UHGV virus genome: UHGV-0478452
Length of the DNA stretch: 19,921 nucleotides
Direction: 5' to 3' (one strand)
From: a virus
Position numbers and translations under genes: made by a program. This document shows, piece after piece, positions 1 to 18,543 of the stretch. Under the pieces are notes generated by a model. It was not told the origin of the DNA, did no database searches, and worked only from the letters and a program-made list of their open reading frames with translations. Each line of letters opens with the position of its first letter. Position 1 is the stretch's first letter.

Positions 1-593
1 CCACGCATTGCAAAGTCATGACACTGCCAAGGTAAATGGGAGTCGTTGTCACAGGTTAAGTCAGCCCATTGCTTACAAATGCGTTTGTAATGCAGTGCAA
101 TAGTTGCAATCGTACAAGCCTTCCAGATTTCAGCAGAGAAAGCATCTTCAAGGTAACCAGCTACCCAATGGAATCCCTCTACAGTGTTTTTGAAGACAAT
201 CATCGGGACACGCATAGGGACAATTGTACCTTCCTCTACAGAGTAGACTTCAACAGGCAGGTAACCTAAGTCATGAAGCTCTTCCCAATGTTGACGACCA
301 ATAGCATCTGCACCAAGGACACCATTCATGATTTCCAAGATTTCGTCAATGGCTTCTTTCTTATCACGTTCAAAGAACGTTGCATTCCAGTGGTCTACCA
401 GATAGTCTTTTACAAAACGCTGAATACCAAAGGCCACAACACCATCAATCTCTAACGGAGAGTTAAACCACTTATCTCCACGAGGTGTTAAGTTCAGCAT
501 AAGATACTGTGTAGCATCTGGATACTGGTAGAAATGGCCAGATTTGTAGGCATCTGCATTAAGTGCTGCTGGTACTGCATAAAGTGATTTAGT
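1..593 (-). CDS. nadV: nicotinamide phosphoribosyltransferase family protein (NadV/NAMPT-like), N-terminal 197 codons; C-terminus lies beyond the window edge
   Basis: Absent from the supplied ORF track because it has no stop inside the window. Minus-strand ATG at 593-591 preceded by GAGAGAGATAAAAAG; the frame stays open to position 1. Translation begins MTKSLYAVPAALNADAYKSGHFYQYPDATQYLMLNLTPRGDKWF...; DAYKSGHFYQYP matches the conserved D-S/A-Y-K-x-x-H-x-x-Q-Y-P N-terminal motif of NAMPT/NadV enzymes as I recall it. Confidence 0.75.
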
Positions 594-616
594 CATCTTT
601 TTATCTCTCTCAAAGT

Positions 617-632
617 GGGGCTTTTCAGCCCC
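617..632 (-). promoter_or_regulatory. intergenic stem-loop between prs-like gene and nadV (6-bp GC-rich stem, GAAA loop on the mRNA strand); no U-run follows
   Basis: Plus strand GGGGCT-TTTC-AGCCCC at 617-632; on the minus strand this reads GGGGCU-GAAA-AGCCCC followed by ACUUUGAGAGAGAUAAAAAG-AUG, so it is not a canonical intrinsic terminator. Confidence 0.4.
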
Positions 633-640
633 TAAAGTTG

Positions 641-1522
641 TTATTCAATATTTGCTACGGTCACTTGTGAGAAGTGGGAAAGACCACGGTCTTTTTCATC
701 CCCGAGTGAGTTTGTAGTGTAGATATGGTCGATGCCATTGTCAAGAAGATTTTCAACACCTTTAGAGAAAATCCCATGAGTCACATAAAGCTCTACACGT
801 TCTGCTCCAGCTTCACGAAGATACTTTGCAGCCTCGATAAAGGTTCGACCACCGTCACAGATATCATCCAGAATCATGACAGTCTTACCTGTCAAGTCTA
901 CATCATCAAGGATTCGCATACCAGTGATTTCACCAGTTTTCAGGTTTCGTACCTTAGCCATTGTAATGTAAGGTTTCTCAACCTCTTTAGCAGCCTCTTC
1001 AGTCTTCTTAGCTGCACCTGCATCTGGAGCCACTAAGTAATCAATGCGTGGGTCACTTGCAAAGTGGACTGCTGCCTCTTTTTGAGGGAGGTTGTAGAAG
1101 CTCTTAAACAAATTCTCTGCAACATTACTGTGAGTATCCAGAGCACATACTGCATCGAACTCCATAGCATTTACAAGATTTGCAAAGACTTTAAGTGCTG
1201 CTGCATCACCTTTAAACATGTGACGGTCATAGCGAGCATTTGGTAAGAATCCAAAGACAACAGTTTTCAGAGTTGCTTTCTGAGGAATCAAACGGTCAAT
1301 TGCTTCTTTAGCCATAGCCAATGCAAAGAGTGTGTCTTTGTCATAACCTTGTACAGTGAATATTACGTTTTCAATCTTACCAGCAGCATGTTCAGCAAAG
1401 TCTACTAAGTCTTCTGAGAAGTTACCACCAATCTCCCCAGAAGGGAACTGGATAATGTTGAAGGTCTCTTGATGAGAACCTTTGGAATTTGAATTAAGTA
1501 GAACTCGAATAGTAGTTTTCAT
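641..1522 (-). CDS. prs: ribose-phosphate pyrophosphokinase family protein (PRPP synthetase-like; could equally be an ADP-ribose pyrophosphokinase-type paralogue)
   Basis: 293-aa ORF with RBS GAGAGAGATATT before the ATG. Prs-family hallmarks are visible: FPSGE near the N-terminus, NARYDR, LDTHSN, the phosphoribosyl-binding loop VMILDDICDGGRT, and YVTHGIFSKG. Confidence 0.85.
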   Translation of the reverse strand: MKTTIRVLLNSNSKGSHQETFNIIQFPSGEIGGNFSEDLVDFAEHAAGKIENVIFTVQGYDKDTLFALAMAKEAIDRLIPQKATLKTVVFGFLPNARYDRHMFKGDAAALKVFANLVNAMEFDAVCALDTHSNVAENLFKSFYNLPQKEAAVHFASDPRIDYLVAPDAGAAKKTEEAAKEVEKPYITMAKVRNLKTGEITGMRILDDVDLTGKTVMILDDICDGGRTFIEAAKYLREAGAERVELYVTHGIFSKGVENLLDNGIDHIYTTNSLGDEKDRGLSHFSQVTVANIE

Positions 1523-1534
1523 AATATCTCTCTC

Positions 1535-1813
1535 TCAGTCAAAAGTTACAAATGTTACAGCCATAGCTGATTTACATTTCTTTGGGTCTACAATGTGGTA
1601 GATAACTGAACAGTTTCCTGTTCCGTCTGGTACTGGTTTTGTCCAAGTACGTTCAATATTTGGCTCTCCAAACTCTTTATAGAATCCGTTGGAGTAGTGG
1701 TCTATCATCTCAATAGCAAGTGCATCTGGGACGTGACCACGTATCATATACATCTCACTACCATTTCCAGCTTCGCTAATAAGCTCTTTGATATCCCATT
1801 GTTCTCTAGCCAT
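1535..1813 (-). CDS. hypothetical protein (92 aa from internal start MAREQWDIK; the track ORF extends to 1840)
   Basis: ORF 1535..1840 in the track; the ATG at 1813 sits 2 nt after the TAG stop of the upstream gene (1806-1808), so this start avoids a long overlap. No recognisable motif. Confidence 0.5.
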   Translation of the reverse strand: MAREQWDIKELISEAGNGSEMYMIRGHVPDALAIEMIDHYSNGFYKEFGEPNIERTWTKPVPDGTGNCSVIYHIVDPKKCKSAMAVTFVTFD

Positions 1814-2321
1814 GATAAGTTGCCTCATAAACTGTCTCAAGCTTCAACAAGAGTGATATTGCCAGAACTGCATATTCCCTGTCAAGCATTGGTGGCATAT
1901 TATTTTTAAGATATGCTTTCTGTTCCTCCCAAGTCATCTTAGGGGCTTCTGGAAGCTTCTCTCCCTGCTTCTGGTTATCTTCTTGAGTCTGTATAAACCA
2001 GTTCGAGCAATGGTGCTCTCCACCTTTTGTCACGGGCTTATGGTGGCCTAATGTGAAAGCTTTCTTTCCAGAATATCTACAAAGCTTATTAAGGGTTGCA
2101 ATAGTGTTCTTGACAACGCAGTATTCATAGAGGTTGTCAATAGTGTAATGAGGGTAGTACTGGAACAAGGCACTATCACGGAACTTACCACGGTTCCAAA
2201 GCACCATGTGATTAGAATTTGAGGGGTCATACTGATGTGACTCGATGAACTCTTGACGCTCATCAAAATCAAGACGAAGAACAGACATTGCAGCAGCACG
2301 TTTCAGATTTGAATGGTACAT
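1806..2321 (-). CDS. hypothetical protein with a possible HNH-like His/Gly signature (LGHHKPVTKGGEHHCSNW)
   Basis: 171-aa ORF; start ATG at 2321 preceded by GGAGAAATC and lying just downstream of a terminator. The HH-x-P-x3-GG-x5-N spacing resembles HNH nuclease cores but the Cys pairs are incomplete, so the functional call is weak. Confidence 0.55.
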   Translation of the reverse strand: MYHSNLKRAAAMSVLRLDFDERQEFIESHQYDPSNSNHMVLWNRGKFRDSALFQYYPHYTIDNLYEYCVVKNTIATLNKLCRYSGKKAFTLGHHKPVTKGGEHHCSNWFIQTQEDNQKQGEKLPEAPKMTWEEQKAYLKNNMPPMLDREYAVLAISLLLKLETVYEATYHG

Positions 2322-2330
2322 GATTTCTCC

Positions 2331-2360
2331 AAAATAAAAAGGGAACCTTTTACAGTTCCC
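2331..2360 (-). terminator. rho-independent terminator (stem GGGAAC/GUUCCC, 8-nt loop, then UUUUUAUUUU)
   Basis: Plus strand aaaataaaaa-GGGAAC-cttttaca-GTTCCC at 2331-2360; on the minus strand the hairpin is followed by a U-run, between the stop of ORF 2374..2685 and the RBS of the 1806..2321 gene. Confidence 0.7.
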
Positions 2361-2373
2361 TAATCATATACGT

Positions 2374-2969: not shown

Positions 2970-3227
2970 TTAAAGTTTAATACAGAACTGTTTCAGTTCT
3001 TCTTCTGTTACGGAAACCACTTTGTCATCTTCAACAATATTTGTTGCGTAGAAGTTTGACATGTGTGACTTATATTTTACTCTGAAAACTTCAACTTCTG
3101 CAAGCTTTTTTAAAGCGTCTAATCCAGTTGTATCAAAAAGACTCTTTGTGTACTTCTGCCAATCTTCAAGAGTGTTAGGGTTAACCTTATACTCTCCAAA
3201 CAGTGAGCTATTGCAAGAGATGGTCAT
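2970..3227 (-). CDS. hypothetical protein (85 aa from ATG 3227; alternative start at 3290 would overlap the nrdG 3' end)
   Basis: Track ORF 2970..3368 overlaps the nrdG C-terminus in another frame. The ATG at 3227 has GAGGTGAG 4 nt upstream and lies 25 nt after the nrdG stop; the ATG at 3290 also has a GGAG RBS. Confidence 0.45.
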   Translation of the reverse strand: MTISCNSSLFGEYKVNPNTLEDWQKYTKSLFDTTGLDALKKLAEVEVFRVKYKSHMSNFYATNIVEDDKVVSVTEEELKQFCIKL

Positions 3228-3252
3228 AATCTCACCTCTTCGAAAACCCGCT

Positions 3253-3738
3253 CTATTCTGCTCTCCATTGACAGTCGCCTTGCCAGCCATATTCTTTTCT
3301 CCAAAGTATTTGATTGTCAGACCCACGATACGGTTTGTGTGTCGGTTTAGAAGCATCATACTTACCATCTATTACCACGTCAACATATTTCATCACTTCT
3401 AAGTTGATTTTTTCATGTAGCTGGTAACCTGTCCATAACCATATAGATTTGTCTGGGTATACGGTTTTAATCCGCTTACAGATATTTGTTACTGTCTGAA
3501 CATTCCTATCATCAAGTGGTTCTCCACCAAGGATAGATAGACCACTGATTCCATCATCATTCATTATCTGCATAATGCCATAAAGGTTTGCATAAGTAAA
3601 CTCTTTACCAGCATTAAACTTCCAAGATTCCTTGTTAAAGCAACCTTCACAGTGATGTTTGCAGCCAGCTACAAAAAGACTGACACGAGCACCTTCACCG
3701 TTTGCTGTATCGAATTTTCGTATTTCCATGTAGTTCAT
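3253..3738 (-). CDS. nrdG: anaerobic ribonucleotide reductase activating protein (radical SAM activase)
   Basis: 161-aa ORF with the CxxxCxxC radical-SAM cluster motif (GCKHHCEGC) near the N-terminus and WLWTGY / VDVVIDGKY segments resembling T4 NrdG as recalled. RBS GAGGTG before ATG at 3738. Confidence 0.85.
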   Translation of the reverse strand: MNYMEIRKFDTANGEGARVSLFVAGCKHHCEGCFNKESWKFNAGKEFTYANLYGIMQIMNDDGISGLSILGGEPLDDRNVQTVTNICKRIKTVYPDKSIWLWTGYQLHEKINLEVMKYVDVVIDGKYDASKPTHKPYRGSDNQILWRKEYGWQGDCQWRAE

Positions 3739-4130
3739 TAGTACACCTCAACTTCAAAACTCACATGCTTTGTGATGTACTCTTCACAGTGCTCTTTAAT
3801 AAATTCCTGAAGCAGTTCATCTTCCTGAGCACGAGTCATCAAAGCAACATACTTAGGGTTCATTGTTTGTTCAATGCTGTAGAATGAAAGGTTACCAATC
3901 TCTGTACCATCTTCATCACACCATGTACCAGTTGCTACCAAAACTTTACCACACAGTGAGTGGGGGATGTTAAAACCTTCTATCTCAGCAGAACTAATGA
4001 CTTCTTCATCTATCATCAATGTGTAAGCTACATAGAATGAGGAATATCTTCTGTGAGTTTTCTCACAAGAGCCACACTCTAAAGCATAATCTTTAAGCCA
4101 GTTCATTTGATTTTTATTTAATTTAGTCAT
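3738..4130 (-). CDS. hypothetical Cys-containing protein (130 aa; CGSC ... C ... WCDED)
   Basis: ORF with RBS AAGGAAAGAG before ATG at 4130; stop overlaps the nrdG start (TAATG). No recognised domain. Confidence 0.55.
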   Translation of the reverse strand: MTKLNKNQMNWLKDYALECGSCEKTHRRYSSFYVAYTLMIDEEVISSAEIEGFNIPHSLCGKVLVATGTWCDEDGTEIGNLSFYSIEQTMNPKYVALMTRAQEDELLQEFIKEHCEEYITKHVSFEVEVY

Positions 4131-4227
4131 TTCTCTTTCCTTTCAATGTGTTGTATAAAAGCCCTAACAAGAAACCTAGTAAGACAGAGCCTACTAAGGT
4201 GACTAACAAGAATGTCTTAATCATCAT
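4123..4227 (-). CDS. putative small single-pass membrane peptide (34 aa, MMIKTFLLVTLVGSVLLGFLLGLLYNTLKGKRND)
   Basis: Not in the ORF track (below its length cutoff). Manual translation of the minus strand: ATG at 4227-4225 overlaps the TGA of the upstream gene (TGATG), followed by a hydrophobic stretch, a basic end, and a TAA at 4125-4123 overlapping the next gene's start. Confidence 0.35.
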   Translation of the reverse strand: MMIKTFLLVTLVGSVLLGFLLGLLYNTLKGKRND

Positions 4228-4484
4228 CAATACCACCATATTGTTTGGTTGTTATCACAAACATACAGGTACTCTGTCCCGATTTGTGGGACGATGATTG
4301 TAGTGTTGCCTGAGATGACTGTCATATAGTATAGGTAATTTCTACTCTGTGACGTTTGCTGACAATGGTTTGCAGTCATCCAAAGCTTAGTGTGGTAACT
4401 GTCATACACAGCAAAACCTATCAGAATTACTAATGCAATCCCAAGAAACCATAAACAAAATTTAGGCCAAAAATCATAGCTCAT
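4227..4484 (-). CDS. putative membrane protein (85 aa; N-terminal TM helix FCLWFLGIALVILIGFAVY, two Cys in the C-terminal part)
   Basis: Track ORF 4227..4511; the internal start MSYDFWPK at 4484 forms an ATGA overlap with the stop of the upstream gene (4481-4483). Confidence 0.5.
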   Translation of the reverse strand: MSYDFWPKFCLWFLGIALVILIGFAVYDSYHTKLWMTANHCQQTSQSRNYLYYMTVISGNTTIIVPQIGTEYLYVCDNNQTIWWY

Positions 4485-4663
4485 GCTGTGACCTCTTGAT
4501 AAACTTTCCAAACGTTTTTTGTTAAGTCCTCGTCATACCATACCCCATTAGAACCTTGCCAAGACACAGTGTATTTATTTTCAGATAAATGTTTGAGGAC
4601 AGCCTCAAGTGTGCGATTAGACTTTCCTGCAACGAAAAGGTAAACCTTGCCAATTTTCAACAT
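4481..4663 (-). CDS. hypothetical protein (60 aa)
   Basis: Track ORF 4481..4702; internal ATG at 4663 (MLKIGKVYLF...) has GGAGATAA upstream and avoids overlap with the nrdD-proximal hairpin. Confidence 0.45.
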   Translation of the reverse strand: MLKIGKVYLFVAGKSNRTLEAVLKHLSENKYTVSWQGSNGVWYDEDLTKNVWKVYQEVTA

Positions 4664-4682
4664 TTTATTATCTCCAATAAAA

Positions 4683-4722
4683 AGGTGATGTAAGCCTATC
4701 AAGACCTACACCACCTTGTCAA
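4683..4722 (-). promoter_or_regulatory. nrdD-distal regulatory region: imperfect hairpin followed by a U-run, overlapping a TTGACA -35-like hexamer
   Basis: Minus strand reads TTGACA-AGGUGGUG-(18-nt loop)-CAUCACCU-UUUUAUU-GGAGAUAAA-AUG. The stem has one G-U pair and a large loop; only a weak -10 (TAGGCT) follows the -35 at 18 bp. Confidence 0.25.
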
Positions 4723-4726
4723 CTAC

Positions 4727-6868
4727 TTACATAGATTTTCTATCCTGAATTTCAGCAATTTTTGCATCATTCATTCTGGAAGTACCTTTAATCTTAGTCC
4801 AGCCAAGATAACCACAAACACGGTTAATCACAGAGATATCGTGTGAGTTGCACTTAGGACACAATTCAACATCTGCACTTGGACGGTGACCACAATTCTC
4901 ACAGATTGCCAAGTCAAAGTTAACACCTTGATAGAAACCTTTACCCATACCTCTTGTCACACAAGCCCTAATAGCTTTATGATTCTCTGGATTAGCAATA
5001 CGAACGTACTGGATATGACCACCATTACAAGCATGGAAGAAAGGTTCTTCTAAGTCTTGCTTTTCAAATGGTGTAATATCTGCACCAACATTCATGTGGA
5101 AGCTGTTTGTAAAGTATTCTTTATCAGATACACCTTTAACAACTCCAAACATGTTTCTAAACTGCTTCAATTGCGTACCACAAAGGCTCTCAGCAGGTGT
5201 ACCATAGAGGGCATACAAGAAACCATCTTCCTGTTTAAACTGCTCCAGCTTGCCATTCAGGTAGTTTAAAACCTTACCTGCAATATCACCGTCTGACTCA
5301 TGTAATCTCTTACCTTGTGCAAGGACTGTCAACTCATCCAATGCAGTGACACCAAAAGAGGCTGTAAAAGATTTCACAGTATCCCAACCAATTTTGTCAG
5401 TTGGCTTCTTATGACCTTTATACAAACCACCTTGTGTGAATGCTAGAGGGTTAGAACTTGCTGGCATATTAGCAATCATCTCATAACGCTTTTTATGGAA
5501 GCTTCTAATCATCTCAAGATACTTGTCAAGTTCTGTCCAGAAGTTTAAACCATTCTCTTCAGAATACTTGTAAATCATTGGCAGATTAAGAGATACTGCA
5601 CCAATGTTTGCTCGCCCTGTGTAGAACTCTTTACCATCTTCGTCATGATATGGTGATAAGAAAGCTCTACAACCCATTGGAGAGATGACTGCACCTGAAC
5701 GCTCAAAAGCTTCTGCAACAGAACCATGACCAGAAACACTTAAGAAGTCTGGGTACATAGCTTTAGAACAACACTCAATAGCTTTATCATAAAGAGTTCC
5801 CTGCCAAGGGTCTAGCATATGTCTTGTCTCATCATAAATGTAAACCAGTTTAGGGAATACAACAGGCTTCTTAGACTTACCTTGACCATTCATTCTCACA
5901 TCAAGAATAGTCTTCGCAATCATAAATTGCAAGCGGTTGTCTTCACTAGCCATATCTGGTTCAAGTAAACCAAATGTTAATGTTGTAAATGCAAAGTCAC
6001 CACGGCTGCAAGGGACAGTGTTTAGCTTCATTTCCAGAGATTGGAAACCTTGTGTCAGTTCAATCTGGAGTTGCTCTTTAGCATAGTGGTATACATCTTT
6101 ACTTGGGATATTATACTGCTTTGCTTTCTCCAGATGATACTCAAAAGACTTCTTAGCATATGGCACAAGAACCTTGTCAATCTCTGGGATAGTGAACCCA
6201 CCAAATTGCTGTGCAGTTGCTGAGAGTACAACGTCACCAATGACCTGTAAAGCTGAAAGTACAGACTTTGGTTCACAGTATTCGATGCCAGACATTTCAA
6301 AACCACCTTTCAAGACGCTTCCAATGTCAAACAAGCAACAGTTAATACCACCGAAGATTAAATCTCTTAAGTCATGGATATAAATGAATCCCTCTTCAAT
6401 AGCACTTGCTTCTTCTGGTGTCAAGTGATACTGCTTAAAGATTTCTTTTGTCAAATATCCACGGATGATTGAACCTTTTGTAGAGATTAAGCTACTGTCA
6501 AAGTTAGCATTCTCACGGTCACCTAAGAAGAGTGTGTCCTTAGTTTTCTGGTAAAGCTCATCCCAATTCTGTGCAACCTCTTTACGATAGTTTCTGTAGG
6601 TTGAGTATGACTCATAGATTTCATGGTTTACTTCTGCCAGAGTTCCTTCCACAATACTGTGAACATCATCTACAGAGATGAGCATAGCATTCTGATTAGT
6701 TGCTCTGACAAGCAGTCTCATAAAGGCTGATTCAAGAGCATGGATAACTTCTAGTGGTAACTCTTTGTAGCCAACTCTATTAGCTGACTTGGTAACTGCT
6801 TCGACGATTTTATTTACATTTGGTTTTTCCAGTGAACCGTCTTTCTTAATAATTTGTACTTTAACCAT
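4727..6868 (-). CDS. nrdD: anaerobic ribonucleoside-triphosphate reductase (class III RNR) with N-terminal ATP-cone
   Basis: Track ORF 4727..6958; I place the start at ATG 6868 (MVKVQIIKKDG...), which has AGGAG 5 nt upstream and lies after the terminator hairpin. The translation carries the glycyl-radical motif RVCGYLG near the C-terminus and a Cys zinc ribbon (CENCGH...CPKC). Confidence 0.92.
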   Translation of the reverse strand: MVKVQIIKKDGSLEKPNVNKIVEAVTKSANRVGYKELPLEVIHALESAFMRLLVRATNQNAMLISVDDVHSIVEGTLAEVNHEIYESYSTYRNYRKEVAQNWDELYQKTKDTLFLGDRENANFDSSLISTKGSIIRGYLTKEIFKQYHLTPEEASAIEEGFIYIHDLRDLIFGGINCCLFDIGSVLKGGFEMSGIEYCEPKSVLSALQVIGDVVLSATAQQFGGFTIPEIDKVLVPYAKKSFEYHLEKAKQYNIPSKDVYHYAKEQLQIELTQGFQSLEMKLNTVPCSRGDFAFTTLTFGLLEPDMASEDNRLQFMIAKTILDVRMNGQGKSKKPVVFPKLVYIYDETRHMLDPWQGTLYDKAIECCSKAMYPDFLSVSGHGSVAEAFERSGAVISPMGCRAFLSPYHDEDGKEFYTGRANIGAVSLNLPMIYKYSEENGLNFWTELDKYLEMIRSFHKKRYEMIANMPASSNPLAFTQGGLYKGHKKPTDKIGWDTVKSFTASFGVTALDELTVLAQGKRLHESDGDIAGKVLNYLNGKLEQFKQEDGFLYALYGTPAESLCGTQLKQFRNMFGVVKGVSDKEYFTNSFHMNVGADITPFEKQDLEEPFFHACNGGHIQYVRIANPENHKAIRACVTRGMGKGFYQGVNFDLAICENCGHRPSADVELCPKCNSHDISVINRVCGYLGWTKIKGTSRMNDAKIAEIQDRKSM

Positions 6869-6883
6869 TCTGACTCCTAATAC

Positions 6884-6907
6884 AAAAAAGGTCTCCGAAG
6901 AGACCCT
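6884..6907 (-). terminator. rho-independent terminator (GGUCUC-UUCG-GAGACC then UUUUUU)
   Basis: Plus strand aaaaaa-GGTCTC-cgaa-GAGACC at 6884-6905; on the minus strand the hairpin has a UUCG loop and a U-run, directly upstream of the nrdD RBS. Confidence 0.75.
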
Positions 6908-6917
6908 TATATTAATT

Positions 6918-7118
6918 CTACTTAGAAAACTTTTCAATAAGCTTTTTAAGCTTTCCACTCAAATCATGTTTGATATCTAATATCTCAAAGATAACCCATA
7001 CTAGCATAGCTCCAAATAGAGCACCTTGTTTTAAATCAGTAAACAGGCTAGTAACCATGAATGCCAGAGCAATCATCGGAGCATCTTCAACAAAACCATC
7101 CCATAAACGTTTAAGCAT
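6918..7118 (-). CDS. small hydrophobic protein (66 aa; two hydrophobic segments)
   Basis: ORF whose start overlaps the stop of the glutaredoxin gene; translation contains MIALAFMVTSLF and ALFGAMLVWVIFEIL. Confidence 0.5.
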   Translation of the reverse strand: MLKRLWDGFVEDAPMIALAFMVTSLFTDLKQGALFGAMLVWVIFEILDIKHDLSGKLKKLIEKFSK

Positions 7119-11375: not shown

Positions 11376-11694
11376 GGTATCTATCCAAGTTTCGTTTCAA
11401 GTAAATCCACTGGTCATCTGTGCGCTCTACACCCATGAACAGGGGGGCTACAACAACTTTACCAAAAGTATTTCTGTGCTGGCAAATCTCGTAAGAGTAC
11501 GGTTTATCAATATTTAAGCCATACTTATACAACACTGCTGCTAATACTTGTTCATTATCCAGAATCGTTTCTGGCTTCTCTCCGTACTTGTCTAACAGTG
11601 AATCATTCATAAACACTGTCATAGAGAGGTTGTAGTTGGAGAAGTGGCTTTTTGCCACCACTTCTTCACCTTTATTAATGTTCTGTGAATCCAT
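11368..11694 (-). CDS. hypothetical protein (108 aa)
   Basis: ORF in the track, overlapping both neighbours by a few codons; no motif recognised. Confidence 0.5.
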   Translation of the reverse strand: MDSQNINKGEEVVAKSHFSNYNLSMTVFMNDSLLDKYGEKPETILDNEQVLAAVLYKYGLNIDKPYSYEICQHRNTFGKVVVAPLFMGVERTDDQWIYLKRNLDRYHV

Positions 11695-12430
11695 TATAAC
11701 CGACTCCTTTCAACCACTGCTTGAGGTTGATTGCATCATAATTCAATTTCGGATATGAGGTTACATGGAACTTCTCACCATCATAGTACACAATATCCGC
11801 AAGCCATAATCCATTCTCACGGCAGAAGTCTTTATCTGCTTTTGAAGAGATTGGTTCAACTTTAGAAAAGTTTTTAATGCCAAGACTACCAAGACTTCCA
11901 ATCAGTCCTTGGCAGATAACGCATGTGTCAGATGTTACCACAAATAGTTCTTTTGCGTCAACTTCTGCAATAAAACTTTCAAGTTGAACTTTTGGAAGAT
12001 TAGACTGTTTCATAATCTTACCATCAGACTTGCGAATAATCGCAAACCACTCTTTACCTTCAATAATTGATTGACGCAGGTAACATTCATCACCAGTACG
12101 TTTCTCAATATCAAACATTCGCTGTAAAGCTTCTTGATAGTCATCTGTGTATTTGAGGTTGTTGTTTTCACAAACAGCCTTGATAGCACCATCGTGGTCA
12201 TGTTGTGTCAGGAAAATTAAACCATCAAGTACATACTGCAAATCAGCTTGAGCATCAAGGGTCTCAACAGGGTCTTTGGCTTCTACTGCTGCGACTAACT
12301 CTCTAGCTTCTTCAAGCATACACAGGGATTGACTTTTCAGTGATTCCCAATACTCTGTGCTGTATGGTTCTTTTGGATTATTGCCACAACGTAGATTCCA
12401 ATTTCTTACGGATTCTCTGGAATTAAACAT
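11675..12430 (-). CDS. putative MazG-like nucleoside triphosphate pyrophosphohydrolase with a C-terminal Cys-x-x-Cys (redoxin-like) extension
   Basis: N-terminal half has acidic helical segments (LEEARELVAAVEAKDPVETLDAQADLQYVLDGLIF) resembling the EExxE...ExxD metal-binding helices of all-alpha NTP pyrophosphatases; C-terminal half has LFVVTSDTCVICQG. Both assignments are by eye. Confidence 0.4.
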   Translation of the reverse strand: MFNSRESVRNWNLRCGNNPKEPYSTEYWESLKSQSLCMLEEARELVAAVEAKDPVETLDAQADLQYVLDGLIFLTQHDHDGAIKAVCENNNLKYTDDYQEALQRMFDIEKRTGDECYLRQSIIEGKEWFAIIRKSDGKIMKQSNLPKVQLESFIAEVDAKELFVVTSDTCVICQGLIGSLGSLGIKNFSKVEPISSKADKDFCRENGLWLADIVYYDGEKFHVTSYPKLNYDAINLKQWLKGVGYNGFTEH

Positions 12431-12646: not shown

Positions 12647-13147
12647 TTAAACTCTCTCATTAAGTTTCATGATTTTAGTGATTCTCTTCTCAGCTTCATC
12701 ATAGGTCTCTTTTGTAAGAAACTTGATTGCTGCAATGTTCGCATTGTAGAAGAGTCGAAGCTTAGAGTCAATCCTTTTTGTCATGACGTCAAACTTATGC
12801 TGTAGGTTAGCTTCGCCATAAACTAAGCCACCTCGCGTATAGTAAGTCTGGATGATGTAGAAGTCAAACTCTTTTTCACCAAAAGATTCAATATCCTTCT
12901 TAATGTATTCAGAAGATGTTTGATAAGTCATCCAATCACTTTCTTTTGTCACGACTTTACGTCTGGTCTTTCCAGCAACCTTTTTCTTAGTGACGTTATT
13001 AAATTGTTTCTTTCCAATATAATATTGTCCAGTTTTCTTACAGTATACTAAATAGACAAAACCAAAATAGTTAGCGGGGTCAATTTCCCCGCACAGTGAA
13101 ATCCAATGTCCATAAACAGGGCAATTTCCAAATCCTTTAATCTTCAT
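12647..13147 (-). CDS. GIY-YIG nuclease-domain protein
   Basis: 166-aa ORF containing FVYLVYCKKTGQYYIGKK, i.e. a (G/F)(I/V)Y ... 10 aa ... YIG arrangement typical of the GIY-YIG motif, followed by basic residues (KTRRK). Confidence 0.45.
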   Translation of the reverse strand: MKIKGFGNCPVYGHWISLCGEIDPANYFGFVYLVYCKKTGQYYIGKKQFNNVTKKKVAGKTRRKVVTKESDWMTYQTSSEYIKKDIESFGEKEFDFYIIQTYYTRGGLVYGEANLQHKFDVMTKRIDSKLRLFYNANIAAIKFLTKETYDEAEKRITKIMKLNERV

Positions 13148-14177
13148 TCATAACTGGCTCCCAATTGTATTTTTTAAACGTAAAATCATCTTTAGGATTT
13201 CGTTCTTGATAAGCAATCCAGAAGTGCTGCTCCATTAGTTCTAGTGGAGTTCTTGTCACAATCTGACCATCCCATGATTCATAGGTGTATGACTCTTTCT
13301 TAGCATAAAGCTCATAGATTGCGTCTAAGCACTCTTTGTAGGTAGTTTTACCTTCCAGTGCATTCATCACCGCAACTTTACCAGCACCTTTTAAACCGAA
13401 GTAGTTATCTGCATTATCACCTGCTACAGCTTGATAGCAGAGGAATTTAAAACCTACTCCGACTGTCTTCTTAGCTTTCGGTTTAGATTTGATAGGGCAA
13501 TCCCAAATCTCACCAACGTTATTATCTGCAATGAAAATTAATGGAGCTTTCTCATAAGTCATATCAATACAGTAAGTTCCTTCAGCTTGACGAAGGTCTT
13601 TATCAATACTCATCAGAGCAGCTTTTTTACCCATCTTCTCAGCTTTTGCAATAACGATAGAGTCTGCTTCGAAGCCCCCTTTTAAGAGCTTAAACTCTGG
13701 TCGTGACAGAAGATACTCACGACAAGCAACTAGGTGTGTAGGTGTTACAGCTTCTTTTCTGTTACCTTGATATTGGTGTTCAAGACCTTTGATATCCTTG
13801 TGTTTGTGAACACCTTTCTCAGTAAGGTAACCCATCCATTTGCGTTCTTTACCAACGACTTTCAACCACTCCTGAAGAACTTGCTGTGTAGCCATAATTG
13901 CTTCAGCTTCACTCTTAGCCTCCTTCCAAGTCTGTCTTTCCCATTCATCTTCATCAAAGTCAAGTCCTAACTCTTCAGTTAAAACTCTTTGGTCAGACAG
14001 CCATTGTGCTGCCAGTTTTGCACTATCAAAAGCGTCGGATTCTTCAGCAGTGATTTTATTCACATACTTGTACTTTGCTTTTTCAACTACACAAGCACCT
14101 TTGTAAGCAATGCTATCAGAGTCAATAAAGACGTGTGTAACGCTCTCTGGGAGCTTTGTTAAGGTGTATTGTTCCAT
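13137..14177 (-). CDS. putative 5'-3' exonuclease (T7 gp6-like, PIN/FEN-type)
   Basis: Track ORF 13137..14204; I place the start at ATG 14177 (MEQYTLTK), which has a GGAGAG RBS and lies after the terminator. HVFIDSDSIAY near the N-terminus, MSIDKDLRQ, and AVAGDNADNYFGLKGAGKV resemble T7 gene 6 exonuclease segments as recalled. Confidence 0.5.
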   Translation of the reverse strand: MEQYTLTKLPESVTHVFIDSDSIAYKGACVVEKAKYKYVNKITAEESDAFDSAKLAAQWLSDQRVLTEELGLDFDEDEWERQTWKEAKSEAEAIMATQQVLQEWLKVVGKERKWMGYLTEKGVHKHKDIKGLEHQYQGNRKEAVTPTHLVACREYLLSRPEFKLLKGGFEADSIVIAKAEKMGKKAALMSIDKDLRQAEGTYCIDMTYEKAPLIFIADNNVGEIWDCPIKSKPKAKKTVGVGFKFLCYQAVAGDNADNYFGLKGAGKVAVMNALEGKTTYKECLDAIYELYAKKESYTYESWDGQIVTRTPLELMEQHFWIAYQERNPKDDFTFKKYNWEPVMNED

Positions 14178-14192
14178 TGTACTCTCCATACG

Positions 14193-14222
14193 AAAAAGCC
14201 CCATACGTCTGTACAGGGCTTT
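14193..14222 (-). terminator. rho-independent terminator between SSB and exonuclease genes (7-bp stem GGGCUUU/AAAGCCC region with U-run)
   Basis: Plus strand aaaaAGCCCC-(loop)-GGGCTTT at 14193-14222; on the minus strand the hairpin is followed by UUUUU. Confidence 0.55.
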
Positions 14223-14239
14223 GTAGTAGTTACTGACTA

Positions 14240-15100
14240 TTACTCGTCGTCAGTTTCGAAATCATCTTCGTCGTCATCATCTGGGTTTGGTAGGTCGTCG
14301 TCATCGTCATCACCACCTTTACCTTCATCACCAGAATCTTTTGCATCTTCTTCAGTGATTTCACCGTTGTCTTCAACACCTGCAAGGCCAAGCATTGCCA
14401 GTTCATCTTCATCCAGTTCAGTCTCAGTAGCACCACCAGTACCACCAGTGTAAGGAACCAGAGTATCAATGATAAATTGTTCCTGAATTGGCTTGGTCAG
14501 AACGTTACCTTCAAATGTGTAGAAGTGAGTCGCCAGAATCACACTACCAAATGAGCCGTTACCAACTGCAATATCTGGATGAATTACATCGTAAGTCTTA
14601 TCATCATCGTGCTTATCAGATTTTGCTGCCTTGATTTTCTTCATAGGCTGCTTAACTGCAACACGCTTACCGTTGATTTCTTCAACCAGCATTACAGGGA
14701 AACTCTGTTTTGCTGACCACACAGCACCGTCTTTATATGCTGCTGAACGGCTAACCTTCAGGATGTGATAGGTGTCAGCTTCAAACGGAGGCTCACAACC
14801 AAACTTCTCTTCGAAGTCATCTGCATCAACAGCCTCTGTAGTAACTTTATCCCAACCTTCAGGACTCTTTTTAGACTTGGTGAACTCTTTAAAGAGCTTG
14901 TTACCATCTTTTGCCAGAATTGAAACGCTGTAGTTACAATCTTTGCCCGGAAAATGCTTATCCACAGATTTACCCTTTTGAGGGCGTGGAATAGTGTTCA
15001 GGTAATAGAACCAAACATCTTTCAGCAGGTAACGCAGAGGCTCACGTTCTTGACCATTGTACTTCTCTACCGGAGCTTTCATTTTAACAACTTTAGACAT
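14240..15100 (-). CDS. putative single-stranded DNA-binding protein (T7 gp2.5-like) with long acidic C-terminal tail ending DDFETDDE
   Basis: 286-aa ORF, RBS AGAGGTATTAAA before ATG at 15100. Basic N-terminal part, Gly-rich linker (YTGGTGG), then a poly-Asp/Glu tail with a single Phe, which is the gp2.5-type architecture. Confidence 0.55.
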   Translation of the reverse strand: MSKVVKMKAPVEKYNGQEREPLRYLLKDVWFYYLNTIPRPQKGKSVDKHFPGKDCNYSVSILAKDGNKLFKEFTKSKKSPEGWDKVTTEAVDADDFEEKFGCEPPFEADTYHILKVSRSAAYKDGAVWSAKQSFPVMLVEEINGKRVAVKQPMKKIKAAKSDKHDDDKTYDVIHPDIAVGNGSFGSVILATHFYTFEGNVLTKPIQEQFIIDTLVPYTGGTGGATETELDEDELAMLGLAGVEDNGEITEEDAKDSGDEGKGGDDDDDDLPNPDDDDEDDFETDDE

Positions 15101-17760: not shown

Positions 17761-18501
17761 TTATAGATTGATAATGGTTTTAAGTTTACTCTCTAACTCT
17801 TCCATCGTTCCGTTATTCTGGATAATATCACGGGAGAAGTTAGTGGAGATACCACGTTCAGAGCTATGGGAAGCCACCTGAGTAGCATCTTTTCTTGTAA
17901 TCTCAATTATCTGGCTATCGTAGCTTTGAAGGAACTCAGCTTCAATATCAAACCTTAAATCACATATCAGTGCAATACCTATGTGACTTTTCTTAACGCA
18001 ATCTCCATAGAATTTTTCAATACGTTCTGCCAAATCTGTAATCCAGAAACGCTCTCCAAGAATTTTACGGATAACCTCACTACCCCAGACTTGCTGTATT
18101 TGTCTTGAGGAAATCATATATTCATTTTTCAAACCAAGCTTTGTAAGCAATGTAGGTTTACCAACTTTCTTTAACTCTTTGATAAGCCTGTCTGTGATTT
18201 CCCCACAAAGTTTTGCATCTTCATGGATGCCCTTACTTTTCATGTTTAGCTGGAAAGCCCATGCCACACGGGAGTTAAGATTGTCAAAATCTAAGCTAAA
18301 CTTTTTAGGTGTTTCTTTCGTATCACCATACAGGTCTTGCCAGTTCAAGTCAAAGATAAATCCAGCAGTTGCTTTTAAGTTATCGGCAAACGCAAACACT
18401 TTAACAGTGTATCCAGCCTCATTCAATAGATTTTTTACAATGCTGCAAGATGTATCCTTTCCAGAACGAGCTTTTCCAGTAAATGCAATAATACTTTTCA
18501 T
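17761..18501 (-). CDS. deoxynucleoside monophosphate kinase (T4 gp1-like)
   Basis: Track ORF 17761..18531; I place the start at ATG 18501 (MKSIIAFTGKARSGKDTS), which has GGAGTG 6 nt upstream. The P-loop G-x-A-R-S-G-K-D-T and the C-terminal end NNGTMEELESKLKTIINL closely parallel T4 gene 1 dNMP kinase as I recall it. Confidence 0.8.
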   Translation of the reverse strand: MKSIIAFTGKARSGKDTSCSIVKNLLNEAGYTVKVFAFADNLKATAGFIFDLNWQDLYGDTKETPKKFSLDFDNLNSRVAWAFQLNMKSKGIHEDAKLCGEITDRLIKELKKVGKPTLLTKLGLKNEYMISSRQIQQVWGSEVIRKILGERFWITDLAERIEKFYGDCVKKSHIGIALICDLRFDIEAEFLQSYDSQIIEITRKDATQVASHSSERGISTNFSRDIIQNNGTMEELESKLKTIINL

Positions 18502-18513
18502 ATCGTTCACTCC

Positions 18514-18543
18514 ATAATAAAAAGCCCCCAATTAAGGAGGCTT
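18514..18543 (-). terminator. rho-independent terminator (AAGCCUCC-UUAAUU-GGGGGCUU then UUUAUUAU)
   Basis: Inverted repeat at plus 18522-18529 / 18536-18543 (one G-U pair on the mRNA strand) followed by a U-rich run, between the stop of ORF 18559..19353 and the dNMP kinase RBS. Confidence 0.6.

Follow-up and report, generated by a model that had tools for sequence, protein, structure and literature searches.

The two adjacent genes at the beginning of the window (the whole 19,921-nucleotide stretch of viral DNA that was analyzed) very probably, at roughly 93%, constitute the NARP1 operon of a Mooglevirus phage, a close copy of a published system. The genes, adps and namat, had been described by a sequence-only reading as a candidate NAD+ reconstitution module. 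That description held, as the products are 81% (Adps) and 90% (Namat, N-terminus) identical to gp79 and gp80 of the founding phage, Bas63 (Escherichia phage JohannRWettstein), and the gene order is shared. The system in the window is already known; NARP1, consisting of Adps and Namat, was discovered in the Bas63 gp79-gp80 operon (Osterman et al. 2024, bioRxiv 10.1101/2024.02.11.579819), and the window operon leaves the understanding of the pathway unchanged.

Organization of the locus

The window phage belongs to Mooglevirus (Ounavirinae), and over its full length the window is colinear with the genome of Shigella phage KPS64 (98.1% identity). The operon is composed of the following elements:

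641..1522, minus strand: adps, predicted ADP-ribose pyrophosphate synthetase (Prs family), a complete ORF of 293 aa
597..640, minus strand: intercistronic spacer of 44 nt between adps and namat
1..596, minus strand: namat, predicted nicotinamide ADP-ribose transferase (NAMPT family), first 198 codons, with its ATG at 596..594

The adps ORF starts with ATG and ends with TAA at 641-643, and namat follows after 44 nt in the same orientation, which places the pair inside the published NARP1 adjacency limit of 10 genes. The adjacency, the strand and the limits of the Prs-like gene agree with the sequence-only reading, whereas its start for the NAMPT-like gene (593) and its spacer length (47 nt) are replaced by the values above. 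The window edge at position 1 cuts namat, a gene of about 605 aa judging from the full-length KPS64 orthologue (605 aa). Approximately two-thirds of Namat therefore lies beyond the window, including the catalytic core and the GSxxxxxxTRD helix, and this part was seen only in relatives that are 98% identical. The surroundings are a nucleotide-metabolism region (NrdAB, NrdDG and dNMP kinase), and the gene order from NrdA to rIIA is the same in KPS64 and Bas63.

Assignment of the Prs-family protein

The alignment of the window protein with Bas63 gp79 covers 293 of 293 residues with 55 substitutions and no gaps. A protein of phage SFPB is 100% identical to it and is present in the published Adps table, where it is given as an Adps homologue with a Namat within 10 genes. 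Pairwise identity was discarded as a test of clade membership; it separates Adps from Prs poorly (33% to SpbetaL1 Adps versus 28% to E. coli Prs), and for this reason a profile test was chosen. The profile was built from 14 Adps proteins from outside Ounavirinae and is thus independent of the window and Bas63. It gave the window protein 222.6 bits, Bas63 Adps 227.8 bits and E. coli Prs 137.8 bits, so that the window protein scores 85 bits above E. coli Prs. The curated Prs equivalog and subfamily models gave the window protein 52-108 bits against cut-offs of 296-536, and none was reached except that of the broad subfamily model TIGR01251 (131.7 bits, E 2.6e-38, cut-off 113). A profile-HMM comparison of this kind had been suggested by the sequence-only reading, and it grouped the protein with Adps and not with Prs. 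Within the Prs family, the 293-aa protein thus falls by sequence in the Adps clade, apart from ordinary Prs.

Essentially all related GenBank records carry the names ribose-phosphate pyrophosphokinase and nicotinamide phosphoribosyltransferase. When a curated model specific to Adps or Namat was sought, NCBIfam and Pfam gave only matches of the Prs and Nampt type and PHROGs gave generic names. The generic GenBank names hide a validated anti-defense function, and Adps and Namat (NARP1) would be better names. A sequence search for a solved Adps structure returned archaeal and human Prs as best matches (E 1e-17 to 1e-15); in the literature, an Adps structure has not yet been published.

Residues and motifs of Adps

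Three positions in Adps were located on the DNA:

953..955, minus strand: codon of Adps Lys190, placed by alignment and residue mapping, equivalent to catalytic Lys162 of SpbetaL1 Adps (B. subtilis Prs Lys197)
842..868, minus strand: DDICDGGRT loop of Adps, aa 219-227, corresponding to the loop DDMIDTGGT with which E. coli Prs binds ribose-5-phosphate
1223..1240, minus strand: NARYDR motif of Adps, aa 95-100, an Ounavirinae-specific variant of Prs ARQDR

The catalytic lysine is conserved in the window Adps, in which Lys190 aligns with SpbetaL1 K162; in a published assay the K162A substitution abolished the activity of SpbetaL1 Adps. Cellular Prs, represented by E. coli b1207, shares its family and domain layout with the window Adps, and the RxDR, PD-G, phosphoribosyl-loop DD and HxIFS elements are kept. 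However, the two proteins are only 28% identical, the flexible loop reads K-x-R-N-x-x-TG-x-I in the window Adps and DKRRPRANV in Prs, and the C-terminal ~25 aa of Prs are absent.

Two further differences concern known Prs elements. First, the window Adps reads D-G-G-R-T and does not contain the ribose-5-phosphate loop D-T-[GA]-G-T. None of the 17 Adps compared (14 from outside Ounavirinae and those of the window, Bas63 and typing phage 1) keeps the first Thr of DTGGT; G, Y or F stands in its place. The identical DDICDGGRT nonamer occurs in the Adps of phages 0507-KN2-1, RP12, phi92 and PVPSE1. Secondly, a pattern search found no PRPP synthetase signature (DLHAxQIQGFF; DLHAEQIQGFF in E. coli Prs) in the window, Bas63 or SpbetaL1 Adps. 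The pattern used was the PROSITE form D-[LI]-H-[SA]-x-Q-[IMST]-[QM]-G-[FY]-F-x(2)-P-x-D; E. coli Prs, the positive control, matches it at residue 129. Specificity for ADP-ribose may be determined by the change from DTGGT to DGGRT and by the missing QIQGFF signature.

The sequence-only reading had quoted both NARYDR and DDICDGGRT, which do exist at the residues given, as possible signs of a changed substrate. Its argument stands for DDICDGGRT, which is found in many Adps of Gram-negative phages and differs from the DDMIDTGGT of E. coli Prs. It fails for the Ounavirinae-specific NARYDR: YARQDR is retained in many Adps and in E. coli Prs alike, and therefore this position cannot be a substrate determinant.

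Assignment of the NAMPT-family protein

The window fragment of Namat matches PF18127 and NF006629 (E 5e-47), and Bas63 gp80 shares 76% identity with the full-length KPS64 orthologue. The fragment scored 161.7 bits against the SpbetaL1 Namat structures 9W5W/9W5X, compared with 55.4 bits for Xcc Nampt and at most 50.3 bits for mammalian Nampt; the full-length KPS64 orthologue scored 422 against SpbetaL1 Namat versus 174 and 143 against Nampt. The comparison with Namat and Nampt proposed in the sequence-only reading thus came out on the Namat side (161.7 bits versus no more than 55.4), and the second enzyme of the window is closer to Namat than to the PRPP-using Nampt. In addition, the Namat of KPS64/Sf13 is listed as Adps-associated in a published table.

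The fragment contains one of the elements that distinguish Namat:

468..488, minus strand: Namat selectivity-clamp loop TPRGDKW (Lys42-Trp43), placed by residue mapping, an adenine-stacking element of the Bas63 type

The published rule for this loop is that an Arg at its third position stacks the adenine and that, if Lys or Tyr is found there, the next residue does so (PMC12774641). The window reads G-D-K42-W43 (TPRGDKW) and Bas63 reads S-D-K-W (TPRSDKW), so K-W is shared. The second element, the selectivity-clamp helix GS-X-phi-X-phi-X-phi-TRD with aromatic X (PMC12774641), is present in the KPS64 orthologue as the Namat-specific GSYTYQYLTRD; the same site of the window gene falls beyond the edge.

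Proposed pathway and comparison with characterized systems

The chemistry and the anti-defense phenotype of the window pair are assigned by orthology. Host defenses (for example SIR2-HerA, type I Thoeris, DSR1/2 and SEFIR) would cleave NAD+ to ADP-ribose and nicotinamide. Adps, using ATP, would pyrophosphorylate ADP-ribose on its free ribose to give ADPR-pyrophosphate (ADPR-PP), and Namat would then replace that pyrophosphate with nicotinamide to give NAD+. NAD+ would in this manner be rebuilt in two steps that do not involve an NMN adenylyltransferase (NMNAT). In phage therapy, members of Mooglevirus and Felixounavirus with NARP1 are expected to resist NAD+-depleting defenses, for instance SIR2-HerA, type I Thoeris, DSR and SEFIR.

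The published ADPR-PP/NAD+ chemistry comes from SpbetaL1 in vitro and from Bas63 by genetics and metabolomics. Bas63 lacking genes 79-80 was sensitized to SIR2-HerA, the wild type alone restored NAD+, and ADPR-PP appeared only when the defense system and the operon were both present (Osterman et al. 2024, bioRxiv 10.1101/2024.02.11.579819). Bas63 resembles the window phage in its subfamily, in gene order, in Adps length (293 aa), in the spacer (44-45 nt), where the hairpin stem is shared, and in the K-W clamp loop. It differs in being a Felixounavirus, whereas the window phage is a Mooglevirus, and its Namat has 593 aa, 12 fewer than that of KPS64, the closest relative of the window.

Bacillus phage SpbetaL1 has the same two-gene order and catalytic Lys, and its Namat and the KPS64 orthologue have the same GS-x-x-x-x-x-x-TRD motif. 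Its Adps, however, is about 28-33% identical to that of the window, with DDLSSFGGT for DDICDGGRT and YSRMDR for NARYDR. Its Namat has 491 aa, and the Ounavirinae protein has about 30 and 88 aa inserted at two places; the clamp loop uses Arg40 in SpbetaL1 and Lys-Trp in the Bas63 and window type (PMC12774641). The Bas63 protein, as reported, "did not purify well", and because the in vitro assays are of SpbetaL1 only, the enzymology of the Ounavirinae enzymes rests on the SpbetaL1 proteins.

Canonical salvage as an alternative

Besides the NARP1-type pathway, which is supported by orthology and the published Adps and Namat tables, the sequence-only reading had offered canonical salvage with an NMNAT. 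An ordinary PRPP synthetase and a Nampt would then make NMN, and an NMN adenylyltransferase of host or phage would convert it to NAD+, as in NARP2 or in nucleotide salvage. The GenBank labels fit such a pathway, as do the passing of the TIGR01251 cut-off and the position of adps-namat inside the nucleotide-metabolism region. Also, SpbetaL1 Namat makes NMN from PRPP in vitro (PMC12774641), and the window Namat may likewise have some canonical, NMN-making activity.

The evidence on the first enzyme and on the NMNAT points elsewhere, and canonical salvage is scarcely credible as the function of the pair. The Prs equivalog cut-offs were all missed, the Prs signature is absent and the margin over E. 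coli Prs on the independent Adps profile is large, as given above; the published Prs-type reaction yielded nothing with SpbetaL1 Adps. No adenylyltransferase had been visible upstream to the sequence-only reading, and the domain scan likewise found no NMNAT or Nudix domain in the window ORFs that it covered. That reading had named an NMNAT past the edge, together with clustering with ordinary Prs, as what would indicate plain salvage. Neither was found: no NMNAT or Nudix gene is annotated anywhere in the 98.1%-identical KPS64 genome, the annotation of which cites InterPro entries, including the part that corresponds to the sequence beyond the edge. Moreover, Bas63 overcomes SIR2-HerA in a host that lacks pncC and nadR (Osterman et al. 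2024, bioRxiv 10.1101/2024.02.11.579819).

NARP2 of Vibrio phage KVP40 (Nampt plus a bifunctional Nmnat) is likewise a countermeasure to NAD+ depletion that employs an enzyme of the NAMPT family. It needs Nmnat and starts from PRPP, whereas no Nmnat was found in the window and the NAMPT-family protein there groups with Namat. In the published survey, no phage had both NARP1 and NARP2.

A distal macro-domain gene

The NARP1 reading could be extended to a dispersed three-enzyme pathway, in which Adps and Namat act with an Adpp-like macro-domain ADPR-1''-phosphate phosphatase encoded ~8 kb away. The model for such a pathway is NARP1-AP of Vibrio phage Gary (Adps-Adpp-Namat; bioRxiv 10.64898/2026.01.28.702374), which has the same Adps and Namat core. 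Ounavirinae, like Gary, encode an Adpp-like macro-domain protein: KPS64 gp127 and Bas63 gp0095 carry a Macro domain, and gp127 aligns with the full length of the characterized Gary Adpp at 30% identity (E 4e-17). The best matches of gp127 among solved structures are to yeast Poa1p, an ADP-ribose 1''-phosphate phosphatase. The published survey would have missed a distal gene of this kind because its scan was limited to the two genes on each side of NARP1, and the Ounavirinae phages are not in its table. If the extension were correct, the macro-domain protein could channel ADPR-1''-phosphate to Adps and give resistance of the NARP1-AP type to RES-domain NAD+ phosphorylases.

The extension is nevertheless doubtful. 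Macro-domain proteins occur in 2,678 phage records, those of T4-like phages among them, and therefore homology alone does not tie the gene to NARP1. In Gary the phosphatase gene is inside the operon, whereas nothing lies between adps and namat in the window and the macro-domain gene is found outside it, at a distance of about 15 genes. Also, gp127 has about 105 additional aa at its C-terminus.

Upstream genes and intercistronic spacer

Three features upstream of adps are given as context only:

1535..1813, minus strand: ORF of 92 aa, phrog_4726 (unknown function)
1806..2321, minus strand: HNH-like ORF of 171 aa, phrog_3500 (unknown function)
2340..2361, minus strand: terminator-like hairpin followed by a T-run, from a consensus scan only, upstream of the four-gene cluster

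The two ORFs overlap by 8 nt, and 12 nt separate the 92-aa ORF from adps; both may be co-transcribed with adps-namat. The hairpin is a possible boundary of the transcription unit; the scan gave three terminator-like sites, where chance alone would give 2.4.

This tight packing after a terminator-like site would fit a four-gene NARP1 operon in which the 171-aa and 92-aa proteins are accessory subunits. The order of the four genes is also found in Bas63 and in Erwinia phage Fifi318, and is thus kept across three Ounavirinae genera. However, conservation limited to one subfamily may be plain inheritance. The 92-aa ORF turned up only in the Felixounavirus/Mooglevirus group. The 171-aa protein bears a weak resemblance to HNH endonucleases, and in phage muut neither Adps nor Namat is encoded within 5 kb of its homologue. 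In Bas63, deletion of genes 79-80 alone was sufficient for the phenotype. An accessory role is very unlikely, and it was set aside as unsupported outside Ounavirinae.

The spacer between adps and namat contains one predicted structure:

617..632, minus strand: stem-loop GGGGC-TGAAAA-GCCCC (fold -12.8 kcal/mol, z = -3.26)

The stem is kept in both KPS64 and Bas63, with variation in the loop and flanks, but Fifi318, a Kolesnikvirus, lacks it. Given this absence and the lack of compensatory changes, a reading as a conserved regulatory RNA was not adopted, and any function of the stem-loop is putative. A purine-rich ribosome-binding stretch precedes the namat ATG.

Assignment of the adps-namat pair to NARP1

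The Prs-family gene adps and the NAMPT-family gene namat were located as follows.

641-1522, minus strand: adps ORF, 293 aa, ATG start, TAA stop at 641-643
1-596, minus strand: namat ORF, 198 codons in the window, ATG at 596-594, runs off at position 1
597-640, minus strand: adps-namat spacer, 44 nt
Residues 95-100 of the window Adps: NARYDR motif
Residues 219-227 of the window Adps: DDICDGGRT motif

The sequence-only reading had placed adps and both motifs correctly, while its namat start (593) and spacer (47 nt) were each off by 3 nt. The window Adps has matches to Pribosyltran and Pribosyl_synth, with 131.7 bits on TIGR01251, and the Namat fragment matches NAMPT_N and NF006629 (E 5e-47); as sequence matches, both family assignments are far above chance. 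About two thirds of namat lies outside the window.

Two pathways had been proposed for the pair, canonical salvage (NARP2, Nampt plus Nmnat) and NARP1, in which Adps converts ADP-ribose (ADPR) to ADPR-pyrophosphate (ADPR-PP) and Namat joins this to nicotinamide to rebuild NAD+. NARP1 is supported by orthology to phage Bas63, gene order, published tables and membership tests. NARP1 was discovered as the two-gene operon 79-80 of BASEL phage Bas63 (JohannRWettstein, MZ501086), a Felixounavirus in the same subfamily, Ounavirinae, as the window phage, a Mooglevirus. Bas63 without the operon is sensitive to SIR2-HerA, NAD+ is restored by the wild-type phage only, ADPR-PP is seen only when defence system and operon occur together, and the effect is independent of host pncC and nadR (bioRxiv 10.1101/2024.02.11.579819).

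The window Adps and Bas63 gp79 align over 293 of 293 residues with no gap at 81% identity, and the 198-aa Namat fragment is 90% identical to gp80. The full-length Namat of KPS64, a Shigella phage (Ounavirinae, Mooglevirus) colinear with the window at 98.1% identity over 100% of the 19.9 kb, is 76% identical to gp80. KPS64 and Bas63 share the order NrdA, NrdB, Grx, NrdD, NrdG, small ORFs, a 171-aa ORF, a 92-aa ORF, adps, a 44-45-nt gap, namat, small ORFs and rIIA. In addition, phage SFPB protein OQ031072_00074, which is 100% identical to the window Adps, is listed in the supplementary tables of the NARP1 paper as an Adps homologue ("Namat within 10 genes: Yes"), and the NAMPT-like proteins of KPS64, Sf13 and SFPB are listed there as "Adps-associated." Thus, this exact module is already catalogued, and since NARP1 is known and tabulated in the literature the module itself is of low interest. 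The chemistry ascribed to the window proteins is predicted, transferred from the in vitro work on the enzymes of Bacillus phage SpbetaL1 and from Bas63 genetics and metabolomics, the Bas63 protein having purified poorly.

The practical value lies in re-annotation. Nearly everywhere in about 230 Ounavirinae phage GenBank records, adps is named "ribose-phosphate pyrophosphokinase" and namat "nicotinamide (or nicotinate) phosphoribosyltransferase." On searching, neither NCBIfam nor Pfam yielded a model specific to Adps or Namat, and PHROGs gave generic names, so standard annotation misses a validated anti-defence function.

Comparison of Adps with cellular Prs

Pairwise identity separates Adps from Prs poorly (33% between the window Adps and SpbetaL1 Adps, 28% to E. 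coli Prs), so a profile was built from 14 published Adps proteins, excluding all Ounavirinae. The window protein scores 222.6 bits on this profile, Bas63 227.8 and E. coli Prs 137.8. The window Adps scores 52-108 bits on the curated equivalog and subfamily models for Prs, against cut-offs of 296-536, and among the Prs models it passes the broad subfamily TIGR01251 alone. A PRPP-synthetase signature of the PROSITE type was present in E. coli Prs, the positive control, and in none of the window, Bas63 and SpbetaL1 proteins. The 293-aa protein does not group with ordinary Prs, a grouping that would have pointed to plain nucleotide salvage. By alignment, its Lys190 is the counterpart of SpbetaL1 K162, the catalytic lysine mutated in published work.

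The motif argument of the sequence-only reading was half right. Phages 0507-KN2-1, RP12, phi92 and PVPSE1 also have the exact DDICDGGRT nonamer in their Adps. DDICDGG[A/M/G]T variants are seen in phages of Pseudomonas, Acinetobacter, Yersinia and Mycobacterium, and the same loop reads DDL[ST]S[FY]GGT in Adps from Gram-positive phages. Compared with one cellular Prs, that of E. coli, 17 of 17 Adps lack the first Thr of the loop DDMIDTGGT. As consistently, the DLHAEQIQGFF signature is replaced by [DE]-x-H-S-x-[VAY], and the flexible loop reads K-x-R-[DN]-x-x-T-G-x-I (single exceptions) rather than DKRRPRANV. We infer from these alignments that the changed loops may make room for the ADP moiety. 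NARYDR, however, is Ounavirinae-specific and was ruled out as a substrate determinant because most Gram-negative phage Adps retain YARQDR. No Adps structure was found by sequence search; the literature describes the structure as unresolved and the selectivity of Adps as obscure.

Namat and the search for an NMN adenylyltransferase

Against the SpbetaL1 Namat crystal structures 9W5W/9W5X the Namat fragment by itself reaches 161.7 bits, compared with 55.4 bits for Xanthomonas Nampt and at most 50.3 for mammalian Nampt. Two Namat-specific elements have been defined, an N-terminal clamp loop and the helix motif GS-X-phi-X-phi-X-phi-TRD, and SpbetaL1 Namat also accepts PRPP in vitro, yielding NMN, but prefers ADPR-PP (PMC12774641). 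The clamp loop, TPRGDKW, lies inside the window and shows the Lys-Trp arrangement known from Bas63; the helix motif falls past the window edge and reads GSYTYQYLTRD in KPS64. Ounavirinae Namat, at 593-609 aa, exceeds the 491 aa of SpbetaL1 Namat by about 100 aa, and its three-block alignment to the crystal structure implies two inserted segments (about 30 and 88 aa), both also carried by Bas63 gp80.

2986-4803 of KPS64 stretch L001 (outside the window), minus strand: KPS64 Namat, insertions at residues ~258-286 and ~352-439

NARP2 would require an NMNAT, and one just past position 1 would have counted against the NARP1 reading. At the corresponding KPS64 position the next genes after namat are a 111-aa ORF, one for a 59-aa membrane protein, and rIIA, and the small ORFs match solely function-unknown PHROGs. 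No NMNAT, NadR or Nudix was annotated across the 90-kb KPS64 genome, whose annotation cites InterPro entries, or found among the scanned window ORFs. In a published survey, no phage carried NARP1 and NARP2 together.

Upstream ORFs, spacer and a distal macro-domain gene

2361-2340, minus strand: terminator-like hairpin with T-run
1535-2321, minus strand: 171-aa HNH-like ORF (phrog_3500) and 92-aa ORF (phrog_4726), directly upstream of adps
617-632, minus strand: spacer stem-loop GGGGC-TGAAAA-GCCCC, stable fold (z = -3.26)

The hairpin precedes four packed minus-strand ORFs: 171 aa, 92 aa (8-nt overlap), adps (12-nt gap) and namat (44-nt gap). The upstream pair sits beside NARP1 in three Ounavirinae genera (Mooglevirus, Felixounavirus and Kolesnikvirus). 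It is unlikely to be part of NARP1, since the 92-aa ORF is restricted to the Felixounavirus/Mooglevirus group and, in the unrelated phage muut, neither Adps nor Namat is encoded within 5 kb of the 171-aa homologue. The spacer stem is kept in Bas63 with different loop and flanks and is missing in Erwinia phage Fifi318; comparison of the window with relatives gave no covariation supporting function. Possible roles are partial termination of transcription, or an effect on RNA processing or stability that sets the Adps:Namat ratio.

MK562502 84406-85200 (10407-11201 of KPS64 stretch L007; outside the window), minus strand: KPS64 gp127, macro-domain "putative phosphatase"
23279-24064 of Bas63 stretch L002 (outside the window), plus strand: Bas63 gp0095, macro-domain "putative phosphatase"

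These proteins (261-264 aa) are encoded about 8 kb (~15 genes) from NARP1. KPS64 gp127 is 30% identical to the characterised ADPR-1''-phosphate phosphatase Adpp of Vibrio phage Gary over the whole of Adpp (E 4e-17), and its best PDB matches are yeast Poa1p, an ADP-ribose 1''-phosphate phosphatase. The macro-domain protein has an additional C-terminal region of about 105 aa. The aRES study scanned two genes on each side of NARP1, and its table does not include these phages (bioRxiv 10.64898/2026.01.28.702374). By homology, gp127/gp0095 may be a distal component of NARP1-AP (Adps-Adpp-Namat), overlooked by that two-flanking-gene survey. This is a tentative lead, since macro domains are very common in phages (2,678 records, T4-like phages included).

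Source phage and surrounding genes

The window is also 97-98% identical to phages Sf15-Sf19, ESh20, 3HA14 and Citrobacter phage BSwM KMM4. The remainder is given over to early replication and nucleotide metabolism and encodes NrdD/NrdG, glutaredoxin, NrdB/NrdA, an exonuclease and a primase-helicase, besides the first three proteins listed next.

17761-18531, minus strand: deoxynucleotide monophosphate kinase (PF21448, E 1.3e-19)
12647-13147, minus strand: SegE-type GIY-YIG homing endonuclease (PF19835, E 1.2e-27), between the exonuclease and PRA-PH/MazG-like genes
11675-12430, minus strand: 251-aa protein, N-terminal PRA-PH (MazG-like NTP pyrophosphohydrolase) domain (PF01503, E 7e-7), C-terminal half with CxxC
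14240-15100, minus strand: 286-aa protein, extremely acidic C-terminal tail (D and E runs), no Pfam match
14169-14453, plus strand: Ser-rich 94-aa ORF, opposite the 286-aa protein gene

Kongming (KomABC), an NAD+-depleting system, is reported to be set off by a phage dNMP kinase and countered by NARP1 (PMC12774641). The window phage may thus carry a potential Kongming trigger together with its countermeasure. For several relatives at 98% identity the alignment to the window breaks into 2-3 pieces, a pattern that fits insertion or deletion of mobile endonucleases in the SegE region. The nrdD gene is intact in the window (4727-6958) and split by a homing endonuclease in Bas63. The 94-aa ORF looks like a composition by-product of the 286-aa gene rather than a gene.
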